This document shows positions 5,437 to 8,808 of a DNA stretch of 8,808 nucleotides, piece by piece; positions within the stretch are counted from its first letter, which is position 1, and every line of letters starts with the position of its first letter. Source of the DNA: a virus (lineage: Duplodnaviria > Heunggongvirae > Uroviricota > Caudoviricetes); the IMG/VR virus record IMGVR_UViG_2706794492_000011. One strand, written 5' to 3'. A program made the position numbers and the translations under genes. The notes under the pieces are model-generated. The model made no database searches and was not told where the DNA came from. It was given only the letters and a program-made list of their open reading frames with translations.

Positions 5437-5465
5437 TTGACATATGTTCATCTTAAGAGAACAAT
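5437..5465 (+). promoter_or_regulatory. putative promoter of the ydfA-dicF-dicB arm (PL-like) with operator in the spacer: -35 TTGACA (5437-5442), operator TGTTCATCTTAAGAGAACA (5445-5463), -10 AACAAT (5460-5465)
   Basis: Consensus TTGACA, 17-nt spacer, AACAAT. Spacer is 13/17 identical to the ydaS promoter spacer; operator is 16/19 identical to 4909-4927. Confidence 0.55.
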
Positions 5466-5953: not shown

Positions 5954-6011
5954 TTTCTGGTGACGTTTGGCGGTATCAGTTTTACTCCGTGACTGCTCTG
6001 CCGCCCTTTTT
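5954..6011 (+). ncRNA. dicF: DicF small RNA (ftsZ-targeting sRNA of Qin-type prophages)
   Basis: TTTCTGGTGACGTTTGGCGGTATCAGTTTTACTCCGTGACTGCTCTGCCGCCCTTTTT matches E. coli DicF as I recall it; ends in a GC-rich segment plus T5; about 170 nt upstream of a dicB homologue. Exact ends are approximate. Confidence 0.6.
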
Positions 6012-6180
6012 AAAGTGAATTTTGTGATGTGGTGAATGCGGCTGAGCGCACGCGGAACAGTTAAAACCAAAAACAGTGTTATGGGTGGATTCTCTGTATC
6101 CGGCGTTAATTGTTAACTGGTTAACGTCACCTGGAGGCACCAGGCACCGCATCACAAAATTCATTGTTGAGGACGCGATA

Positions 6181-6369
6181 ATGGAAACGTCACTACCAAA
6201 CGTTAATACGTCTGAAGGGTGTTTTAATATTGGTATTCTGCTCAGTAACCGGGAGTTTACTGAAGACGCCATCAGGATGAGAAAATATGAGCCTTATCTT
6301 CTCAATGATAATTCCATACTCTCCAGAATTGCCCTTCTTGAACTTGGCATTTTCGGAGGGCAGCAGTGA
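6181..6369 (+). CDS. dicB: DicB-like cell-division inhibitor (MinC-activating), 62 aa
   Basis: METSLPNVNTSEGCFNIGILLSNREFTEDAIRMRKYEPYLLNDNSILSRIALLELGIFGGQQ; N-terminal half closely matches recalled K-12 DicB (METLLPNVNTSEGCFEIG...FTEDAI...), C-terminal half diverges. GAGG 8 nt upstream of ATG 6181. Confidence 0.75.
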   Translation: METSLPNVNTSEGCFNIGILLSNREFTEDAIRMRKYEPYLLNDNSILSRIALLELGIFGGQQ

Positions 6370-6554
6370 GTTCAGCGTTTGCACTGATGATGACGGTTTT
6401 TCTTATAACAGGTGAGCCACAGAATGTGATTACCGGAATTTATGCCAGTAAAGAATCCTGCCATCAGGCAAGAGACGAGCAAAAAATTTCCGGTGAATGT
6501 CTCCCGTTAAACAAAGTATCGCTGTACCTGAATAACGAAATACCGGCTGGATAA
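6366..6554 (+). CDS. small protein with hydrophobic N-terminus, translationally coupled to dicB (positional equivalent of ydfD)
   Basis: GTG start at 6366 overlaps the dicB stop (GTGA); GGAGGG 5 nt upstream. Product (V/M)SSAFALMMTVFLITGEPQNVITGIYASKESCHQARDEQKISGECLPLNKVSLYLNNEIPAG. Family assignment uncertain. Confidence 0.5.
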   Translation: MSSAFALMMTVFLITGEPQNVITGIYASKESCHQARDEQKISGECLPLNKVSLYLNNEIPAG

Positions 6555-6646: not shown

Positions 6647-8808
6647 ATGAGCACTGATAAAGAAGAAATTGCACTGTATTACGAAGCCAAAAATGACAAA
6701 GTCAGAAAACGCCTTGGGATTAAAGGCGGTTTTTACTGGCGCACAGCAAAAAAATTATCGGTTGCAATATCACGGGGTGTTGTCGCAATGGACGATGCTG
6801 GATTTGACGAAGAGGATTTCAAAAAACCTGTTCGCGTGAATTTGCCCATTGTTAATGACCTGCCGCCTGAAGGTGTGTTCGATACTGAATTCTGCAACCG
6901 CTATGAAAAAGGCGGAGAAGATGGCATCACAATGATATTTATAGCGCCTTCCCCCTCAGTTCAGGACAAACCAGCCAGCACTGACAATACCAACGTCAAT
7001 GGCGAAGACATGGCTGAGATTGAGGATAATATGCTCCTGCCGATTTCCGGTCAGGAACTGCCCATTCGCTGGCTTGCGCAACATGGCAGCGAAAAACCGG
7101 TAACGCACGTTTCACGGGAAGAACTTCAGGCATTACATATCGCACGAGCTGAAGAACTGCCTGCTGTTACTGCCCTGGCTATTTCCCACAACACAAAGCT
7201 GCTCGACCCGCTGGAGATTCGCGACCTTCACAAACTGGTACGCGACACAGACAAAGTTTTCCCTAATCCCGTTAATTCCAGTCTGGGGTTAATGACTGCT
7301 TTTTTCGAAGCATACCTGGACGCTGACTATACCGATCGAGGTCTGCTGACAAAAGAGTGGATGAAAGGAAATCGTGTTTTACGCATCAGCCGCACGCCAT
7401 CCGGCGCTAATGCTGGCGGAGGAATTCTTACCGATCGCGGTGAAGGTTTTGTCCACGATGATGCGTCAGTGGAACGTGACGTTGCCGCTGGCGTTCTGGC
7501 CCGTTCAATGGACATCGATATTTACAATCCACATCCGGCACACGCCAAACGCATTGAAGAAATCGTTTCAGAGAATAAGCCGCCCTTTTCTGTTTTTCGT
7601 GACAAATTCATCGCCATGCCTGGTCACCTGGATTATTCCCGCGCGATAGTGGTTGCGTCCGTGAAAGAAGCACCAATTGGTATCGAGGCTACTCCCCACC
7701 GTGTTACCGAATATCTGAACAAAGTACTGACCGAAACCGACCATGCCAACCCTGATCCAGAAATCGTGGATATTGCCTGCGGTCGCTCCTCTGCTCCAAT
7801 GCCGCAGCGTGTAACAAAAGAAGGAAAACAGGATGATGAAGAAAAACCGCAGCCATCTGGCGCAATGGCAGATGAACAGGCAACGACTGAAGCAGTGGAA
7901 CCGGATACAACTGAACATAATCAGGACACGCAGTCGATGGATGCTCAGCCACAGATAAATTCTGTTGATGCGAAATATCAGAAACTGCGGGCAGAACTCC
8001 ATGAAGCCCGGAAAAACATTCCGCCCCAAAATCCTGTCGATGCAGACAAATTACTGGCTGCCTCTCGCGGAGAATTTGTTGAAGGGATTAGCGACCCGAA
8101 TGATCCGAAATGGATTAAGGGGATCCAGACCCGCGATTCTGTGTACCAGAATCAGCCAGAAACGGAACAGAACGACCAGAAAGCGGAACAGAACAGCCCA
8201 AATACGCAACAAAACGAGCCAGAAACGAAACAACCTGAACCAGTAGTGCAACAGGAACCGGAAAAGATCTGCACCGCCTGCGGTCAGAGGAGTGGCGGCA
8301 ACTGCCCTGATTGTGGCGCGGTGATGGGCGACGCAACATACCAGGAAACATTCGATGACAAGAACCTGGTTGAAGTTCAGGAAGACGATTCGGAGAAAAT
8401 GGAAGGCGCTGAACATCAGCACAAGGAGAACACTGGCGGCAATCAGCATCATGCCAGCGATAGTGAAACTGGCGAGACGGCAGATCCCTTAATTACGGTG
8501 AACGGTCATCGCATTATCACATCCACCAGCAGGACGTGTGACCATCTAATGATCGACCTTGAAACCATGGGAAAAAATCCTGATGCCCCGATTATCTCAA
8601 TAGGTGCAATATTTTTCGATCCGCAAACCGGAGATATGGGACCGGAATTTAGTAAGACTATCGATCTGGAAACTGCTGGCGGAGTCATTGATCGGGACAC
8701 CATTAAATGGTGGCTTAAGCAATCACGCGAAGCGCAATCTGCCATTATGACCGATGAAATCCCGTTAGATGATGCACTGTTACAATTGCGGGAATTTATC
8801 GACGAAAA
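6647..8808 (+). CDS. recE: RecE-like exodeoxyribonuclease VIII (partial, 3' end beyond window): N-terminal/central RecE region, Q/E/P-rich linker, Cys4 zinc ribbon, then DEDD (DnaQ-like) exonuclease motif
   Basis: Open frame from ATG 6647 (GAGG 7 nt upstream) to the window end, about 720 codons, no stop; absent from the supplied track because it is edge-truncated. Long collinear similarity to recalled K-12 RecE ([40 protein letters not shown]...[19 protein letters not shown]...[21 protein letters not shown]...[26 protein letters not shown]). From about 8520 the sequence reads [26 protein letters not shown]..., a DnaQ-type Exo I (D-x-E) motif. Confidence 0.85.

Follow-up and report, generated by a model that had tools for sequence, protein, structure and literature searches.

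The exonuclease gene and its mosaic structure

The stretch of DNA analyzed here, which we call the window, comprises 8,808 nucleotides of the virus record IMGVR_UViG_2706794492_000011 (Caudoviricetes). Chromosomes of Escherichia coli of the O157:H7 type match the whole window at 100% identity, and its source is a lambdoid prophage integrated adjoining ynfA/speG. The window ends inside a prophage gene annotated as an exonuclease, which is the subject of this work. This gene is a natural mosaic: Its product contains an N-terminal module (residues 1-391), an acidic tether of about 240 residues which carries a zinc ribbon, and an exonuclease domain of the DEDDh type (residues 629-811). The DEDDh domain occupies the exact place of the PD-(D/E)XK 5'-3' nuclease of RecE. 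The parts of the gene are listed below. Structures were predicted with AlphaFold2, run with alignments; pLDDT, the predicted local distance difference test, is its confidence score.

6647..8808, plus strand: prophage exonuclease gene, first 720 of 814 codons (WP_000102182.1), frame open throughout
6647..6949, plus strand: N-terminal alpha/beta domain, residues 1-101, pLDDT about 90; the first 57 residues are unlike K-12 RecE
6983..7819, plus strand: helical domain common to RecE, residues 113-391, pLDDT mostly 85-97
7820..8530, plus strand: acidic Q/N-rich tether, mostly disordered, residues 392-628, with one helix at 438-456
8270..8314, plus strand: four-cysteine zinc-ribbon knuckle (C542, C545, C553, C556), conserved in the alignment with K-12 RecE
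8493..8530, plus strand: mosaic junction, codons about 616-628, where RecE homology stops and a near-identical DEDDh cassette starts
8531..8808, plus strand: first half of the DEDDh (DexA/Rv2179c-like) 3'-5' exonuclease domain, which extends over residues 629-811 in all; the window reaches residue 720
8555..8563, plus strand: Exo I motif, D637-L-E639; D737 of Exo II and H787/D792 of Exo III are past the window end

A first-pass annotation, made from the letters of the window, had described a single uninterrupted frame from position 6647 to the window end. All 720 codons are indeed open. A GAGG ribosome-binding site lies 9 nt 5' of the ATG at 6647, and identical genomes place the stop codon 283 nt past the window end. 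The full coding sequence of WP_000102182.1 was recovered from two 100% matches, NZ_CP018247.1 and NZ_CP040316.1: Extended to its stop codon, the gene codes for 814 amino acids and includes the Exo II and Exo III motifs. The same annotation had left room for a sequencing frameshift. The exact 814 amino acid protein (P0121) is found on 381 contigs, therefore there is no frameshift or misassembly in this gene. One database entry gives the protein a product name of its own.

The RecE-like part

The kinship with RecE, which had been proposed in the first-pass annotation, is borne out by BLASTP: Residues 58-617 match residues 50-592 of K-12 RecE with 74% identity. This stretch takes in the PF06630 region, the helical domain, the acidic tether, the zinc ribbon and the ETGE.ADP segment. 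PF06630, the N-terminal region of exonuclease VIII, is matched at residues 56-189 (E 6.8e-34). The NCBIfam equivalog model for RecE, NF007259, gives 1093.9 bits, short of its cut-off (1269 bits), with a match confined to positions 1-603 of the 877 in the profile. No significant BLASTP similarity to K-12 RecE is found past residue 617, and the end of the homology at ETGE.ADP was correctly placed by the first reading. At the nucleotide level, the blastn homology to K-12 recE (83.4%) ends at nucleotide 1847 of the gene, which is codon 616, near window position 8493. Identity to K-12 recE is 83% from codon 113, and there is none over the DEDDh cassette. The motifs cited in the first-pass annotation are found at residues 542 (CTACG), 553 (CPDCG), 607 (ETGE) and 637-639 (D-L-E).

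The N-terminal module (residues 1-391; window 6647-7819) is modelled at pLDDT 85-97, and it has no structural relatives in the PDB or in BFVD. The tether falls below pLDDT 50 over residues 392-437 and from about 460 to 628, with an isoelectric point of 4.0-4.3. The match of the zinc ribbon to the Pfam family DZR is weak (E 0.058), and the confidence of the model is low there. Tether residues 506-519 (window positions about 8160-8200), which are rich in Q, N and E, form a 14-residue insertion with respect to K-12 RecE; this suggests that the tether is a low-complexity linker of variable length.

RecE is a workhorse of recombineering. Its residues 1-587 are dispensable for exonuclease VIII activity and for RecET recombination, and the specificity for RecT is located in its C-terminal nuclease part. 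To our knowledge, no function has been assigned to the N-terminal region since the 1980s.

The DEDDh exonuclease domain

The first-pass annotation had singled out positions 8459-8808, which correspond to residues 605-720, as the place where a DEDD exonuclease motif takes over from RecE. The identification holds. The part of the domain within the window is sufficient for a match to PF16473, the Rv2179c-like family (E 4.8e-30, 105 bits), well past what chance would give. With the full gene the match rises to 227.2 bits (E 1.4e-67; gathering cut-off, 27 bits) and covers profile positions 2-177 of 177, which is practically the full length. At the equivalent place, K-12 RecE has the PD-(D/E)XK domain PF12684 (residues 615-850); a Pfam search of the full 814 amino acid protein gives no match to PF12684. 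The protein ends three residues past the DEDDh domain. Of the two arrangements that had been considered, an insertion into RecE or a domain swap, the second is the correct one, as no PD-(D/E)XK domain follows.

The catalytic set is complete: D637, E639, D737, H787 and D792, distributed over Exo I, Exo II and Exo III. In an alignment of 29 sequences D637 is invariant, and the other four residues are at least 90% conserved. The domain is modelled at a pLDDT of about 90. Its ratio of nonsynonymous to synonymous substitution rates (dN/dS) is 0.07-0.36, and purifying selection acts on both halves of the gene. A 79 amino acid open reading frame lies antisense to the domain (8506-8745, minus strand), in a block which is 98-100% conserved as a plus-strand gene; nothing suggests that this antisense frame is itself a gene.

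Exonuclease A of phage T4, DexA, is the nearest characterized relative. A Foldseek search with the model of the domain gives DexA (8KEL) as the best PDB match (E 4e-11), followed by RNase T, Orn/REXO2, DnaQ domains and Cap18, which is associated with CBASS (cyclic oligonucleotide-based antiphage signalling system). DexA is also the sole solved structure found by sequence, with E 9e-8 for a single sequence and 3.4e-16 for a profile. Its catalytic residues D7, E9 (printed as E12 in the paper), D119, H186 and D191 (PDB 8KEL/8KEN) match D637, E639, D737, H787 and D792. Identity is only about 21-23%, and the two proteins differ in their setting: DexA is a stand-alone protein of 227 amino acids with extra loops from a lytic phage, whereas the DEDDh domain of the window gene forms the C-terminal end of an 814 amino acid protein found in temperate phages. 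DexA is a 3'-5' DNA exonuclease which prefers single-stranded DNA (PMC12153337).

The name of the Pfam family points elsewhere. Its founder, Rv2179c, is a mycobacterial RNA exonuclease. Nevertheless, no Rv2179c chain appears in the sequence search, in the profile search or among the top 50 fold matches against solved structures, so substrate preference may not be transferred from Rv2179c. With DexA as a guide, we infer that the domain is a 3'-5' exonuclease, the substrate of which would be DNA.

An exchangeable cassette

The junction lies where unrelated genes begin to share one cassette. Identity to phages Tritos and 689R5 rises from about 88% to 98-100% near nucleotide 1880 of the gene, and the left edge of the DEDDh cassette is the point where RecE homology stops. 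In Tritos, the N-terminal part is unrelated up to about codon 465, the tether shows 85-93% nucleotide identity (codons about 467-627), and the cassette (from about codon 627) is 98-100% identical and runs on into xis. In 689R5, codons 1-264 of the N-terminal part show 86% nucleotide identity and codons 265-396 give no blastn match; the tether (about 85-93%) starts near codon 397, and the cassette, again 98-100% identical, extends to the gene end only. In genes with unrelated N-termini, the cassette maintains 96-99% amino acid identity, with dS (synonymous divergence) of 0.02-0.2.

Both parts of the mosaic are also found in other combinations. The cassette is joined to N-termini of the YdfE type, which are unrelated to RecE, and the DEDDh domain is a separate gene in Klebsiella, Xanthomonas and many other phages. 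Conversely, RecE-type N-termini are paired with PD-(D/E)XK, with DEDDh or with no recognizable C-terminal domain. The combination of a RecE-type N-terminus with DEDDh is also present in homologues with only 30-40% identity.

The 180-183 amino acid DEDD genes which appear to stand alone in E. coli were considered as donors of the cassette. Two of the contexts we have examined are gene-calling artefacts: One (L005) contains a run of N, and in the other (L009) the upstream frame is open and includes the conserved linker. Two short proteins, P0092 and P0111 (209-261 amino acids), have a YdfE-type N-terminus which leads directly into the latter half of the DEDDh domain, so that Exo I is missing; presumably they are deletion derivatives and catalytically dead.

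The exchange and recT

The first-pass annotation had assumed that the nuclease is paired with RecT. This does not stand. In K-12 Rac, the gene order is recE, recT, ralR, rcbA, xisR and intR. In the window prophage, the exonuclease gene is directly followed by xis and a degraded int, without recT. We have found this arrangement, with xis-int directly after the DEDDh gene and no recT, in seven other loci: phages vB_EcoS-689R5 and Tritos, three E. coli prophages at other attachment sites, and two distant homologues. In the last two the N-terminal module is only 34-35% identical. On the other hand, a divergent member of the family with a PD-(D/E)XK domain has a RecT gene after it. In the one locus seen for a member with the RecE N-terminal region and no recognizable C-terminal domain, the next genes are DUF1187, xis and int, again without recT. 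As recT is kept by the PD-(D/E)XK forms and is missing after the DEDDh forms, the unit of exchange is the PD-(D/E)XK domain together with recT on one side, and the DEDDh domain on the other.

The comparison with RecE of the K-12 Rac prophage (exonuclease VIII, P15032; PF06630 and PF12684) may be summarized as follows. Both genes are among the last of a lambdoid early-left operon and precede xis-int. They differ in the first 57 residues, in the absence here of the PD-(D/E)XK domain and of downstream recT, ralR and rcbA, and in the expected polarity, which from the domain assignment would be 3'-5' in the window exonuclease and is 5'-3' in RecE.

The dicB-type operon

The genes of the window are arranged in this order: replication genes (minus strand), a YdaT/Cro-like pair (minus strand), a repressor-like helix-turn-helix gene, ydfA, DicF, dicB, a ydfD-like gene and the exonuclease gene. 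The elements immediately upstream of the exonuclease gene are:

5955..6554, plus strand: upstream members of the dicB early-left operon taken together, in the same orientation as the exonuclease gene
5955-6006, plus strand: DicF small RNA (Rfam RF00039, 76.7 bits)
6181-6369, plus strand: dicB, from the annotation of identical genomes
6366-6554, plus strand: ydfD-like gene, DUF1482 (lysis gene), from the annotation of identical genomes

By its position, the exonuclease gene is the last gene of a dicB-type early-left operon, with the order DicF, dicB, ydfD, exonuclease, xis and int. Consensus matching detects no promoter-like site in the 92-nt gap before 6647; by the same method, and only by it, a promoter-like site is found at 5437-5465, between the repressor gene and ydfA. 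On this consensus matching, the exonuclease gene would share one transcript with DicF, dicB and ydfD, started at a promoter located after the repressor gene and before ydfA. The K-12 Qin genes ydfB and ydfC are not annotated in the window prophage. Elsewhere in the window, in the region of a minus-strand DUF551/hypothetical gene, positions 265-413 (149 nt) are replaced by 314 nt in NZ_CP040316.1 (L010 4265-4578), which is otherwise 100% identical.

The same position, behind dicB and ydfD and followed by xis and int, is occupied in Qin-like prophages by the YdfE-type exonuclease (Tritos TRITO_27, 823 amino acids). It shares the tether and zinc ribbon (85-93% nucleotide identity) and the cassette (98-100%) with the window gene, but its N-terminal 465 residues or so are unrelated to RecE. 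For this reason the window gene may not be considered an intact ortholog of K-12 ydfE: The N-terminus rules it out, and the two genes have in common just their position and their C-terminal half. The K-12 Qin pseudogene ydfE, truncated by IS2, matches the N-terminus of the exonuclease of the Tritos type with 99% identity (253 of 255 residues, L012, NC_000913.3 1650078-1650998, compared with L004 3185-5653). As ydfE is the N-terminus of a DEDDh exonuclease of the Tritos type, cut by the insertion sequence, K-12 once had a DexA-like exonuclease behind dicB-ydfD.

Abundance of the DEDDh cassette

The architecture is not a rare novelty. The DEDDh cassette is present in 4048 of 5426 complete E. coli genomes (about 75%), at 8111 places and with up to seven per genome. 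The canonical RecE nuclease domain is found in 1730 of the same genomes, and in 1150 genomes a RecE N-terminus is found together with DEDDh in one match that covers 80% or more of the query. Databases already include it: RefSeq names the protein "exonuclease" or "3'-5' exoribonuclease domain-containing protein", the precomputed Pfam annotation gives PF06630 and PF16473, and PHROGs hold the architecture. On the other hand, our literature search found no paper describing the exchange of RecE scaffold and DEDD domain. The gene is a catalogued and very common, yet unstudied, variant of RecE.

When the full-length protein is the query, all the entries returned are from E. coli and nearly identical. 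With residues 1-460 as the query, an exhaustive phmmer search yields just 194 clusters (50% identity); of the 150 best clusters, about 22 have a PD-(D/E)XK C-terminus, about 16 have DEDDh, and the rest are unassigned. Matching phage records amount to 756, most of them over the DEDDh domain only, and stand-alone DexA-like genes are widespread. A third class of proteins with the RecE N-terminal region (P0274 at L020 4001-6199, P0300, P0304, P0319 and P0348) has 350-440 C-terminal residues without any Pfam match; P0274 has no PDB sequence match either. These proteins may carry further unrecognized effector domains. In some strains (NZ_CP032789.1 and NZ_CP077436.1) an insertion sequence, IS3/IS1203, splits the exonuclease gene into two annotated parts, "RecE family exodeoxyribonuclease" and "3'-5' exoribonuclease domain-containing protein".

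Proposed function and other explanations

The gene product is probably a stand-alone 3'-5' DNA-end exonuclease, by analogy with DexA. It would be made on prophage induction or when the operon is derepressed, and would work alone as a Mg2+-dependent 3'-5' exonuclease. Its targets would be DNA 3' ends, either single-stranded tails or double-stranded ends, as in DexA. The RecE-type N-terminal module would contribute targeting or oligomerization, not catalysis, and the protein would not be part of a two-component recombinase formed by an exonuclease and an annealing protein. Candidate purposes are the trimming of phage or host DNA ends in lytic growth, or an attack on foreign DNA. A stand-alone enzyme is favored because no annealing protein is encoded nearby and because a 3'-5' nuclease would remove the 3' tails which such a protein needs. 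Since RecE residues 1-587 are dispensable for exonuclease VIII, and the module is paired with interchangeable nucleases, a role of the N-terminal module in targeting or assembly is suggested.

Several points weigh against this proposal. No relatives of known function could be detected for the N-terminal module, and the targeting role is deduced only from its pairing with interchangeable nucleases. Membership in the operon is deduced from gene order and from the lack of a consensus promoter before 6647. The Pfam family is named after an exoribonuclease, so the substrate could be RNA or short oligonucleotides. Finally, it is not obvious why a lambdoid phage would need a 3'-5' DNA exonuclease.

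The simplest objection, that a pseudogene, a frameshift or an assembly artefact has put an unrelated DEDD gene in frame, finds some encouragement in the databases, where many entries are fragments, where insertions split the gene in some strains and where some stand-alone frames of 180-183 amino acids are gene-calling artefacts. It is effectively refuted by the identical frame on 381 contigs, by the same architecture in cultured phages and in 30-40% identity homologues, and by purifying selection on both gene halves. It is very unlikely that the gene codes for a recombination exonuclease of reversed polarity which still cooperates with RecT or with a different annealing protein whose gene lies elsewhere, perhaps in one of the many other O157 prophages. 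The gene does sit in the recombination-module slot of the early-left operon and it retains 560 RecE residues; O157 genomes have several lambdoid prophages, and in this strain the cassette is found at five places. Nevertheless, recT has been lost along with PD-(D/E)XK at all the DEDDh loci we have looked at, also those of isolated phages and of distant homologues, whereas the PD-(D/E)XK forms keep recT. What is retained is the dispensable part of RecE, while the specificity for RecT resides in the C-terminal part, which is absent. Resection in the 3'-5' direction would also remove the 3' tails used by annealing proteins. An action on RNA or short oligonucleotides, like that of Rv2179c, Orn or RNase T, is less improbable, but still unlikely. 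The domain would then process RNA of the operon, for instance DicF, or would counter host defence systems by destroying their nucleotide or oligonucleotide signals or their DNA/RNA triggers. The best Pfam family carries the name of the exoribonuclease, the fold neighbours after DexA are RNase T, Orn/REXO2 and Cap18, and the early-operon position suits counter-defence. However, sequence and profile searches of solved structures give only DexA, a DNA enzyme, the neighbourhood gives no pointer to any particular defence system, and, this case apart, the long RecE-type scaffold is known only in fusion with a DNA nuclease.

The most probable of the alternatives, though still an unlikely one, is a prophage exclusion nuclease similar to HREX: The DexA-like domain would degrade the incoming DNA of T-even phages, with its modified cytosine, and would protect the lysogen. 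EcD, the E. coli DexA homologue also called HREX, has conserved catalytic residues; in a paper of 2025 it is reported to cleave DNA with 5-hydroxymethylcytosine (5hmC), to spare DNA without the modification and to protect cells from T4 even when its expression is only leaky (PMC12153337). Bacterial DexA homologues are most frequent in Escherichia according to this paper, which treats them as chromosomal defence (PMC12153337); 75% of complete E. coli genomes contain the DEDDh cassette. An HREX-type enzyme would lack D90, the Asp by which DexA forms tetramers, and would keep W152 and D169, which recognize 5hmC. In a HMMER alignment the aromatic residue Y757 is opposite W152 of DexA, with W753 nearby. 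The same alignment, which is uncertain by about one residue and stops before D169, places D709 opposite D90: The window exonuclease would keep an Asp at a position where EcD has Ala. EcD itself is a different protein, short and stand-alone; according to the cloning primer it begins with MIDTET, unlike the window exonuclease. None of the proteins we have retrieved starts with MIDTE, and the 20-mer of the reverse primer of EcD (HAK9828821.1) matched only one unrelated metagenome-assembled genome. In addition, an early operon controlled by a repressor, beside the lethal genes dicB and ydfD, is unlike the setting of a gene expressed in the lysogen, and PADLOC gives only a weak and generic match (DEDDh, E 1.7e-5).

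Significance for RecE and for prophage biology

The paper on DexA does not mention a prophage context or N-terminal fusions (PMC12153337). Our results reframe its view: Each of the E. coli DexA-like domains we have retrieved is the C-terminal part of a large protein from a prophage early operon, or a fragment of such a protein. A wider interpretation, which we put forward only tentatively, is that the RecE N-terminal region is a general delivery or targeting module of lambdoid prophages with interchangeable effector ends. These ends would be PD-(D/E)XK plus RecT, a DexA-like DEDDh domain, or domains which are still unrecognized; the DEDDh form is the commonest in E. coli. The DEDDh form would then serve exclusion or counter-defence by acting on DNA ends, not recombination; if this is true, it would be a phage-versus-phage or phage-versus-host weapon. 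The N-terminal module probably functions as a unit by itself, which makes its binding partners a direct question. RecE of K-12 does not represent the usual form: The scaffold which it shares with the window exonuclease is in E. coli frequently joined to a nuclease with the opposite expected polarity, and RecT is then absent.

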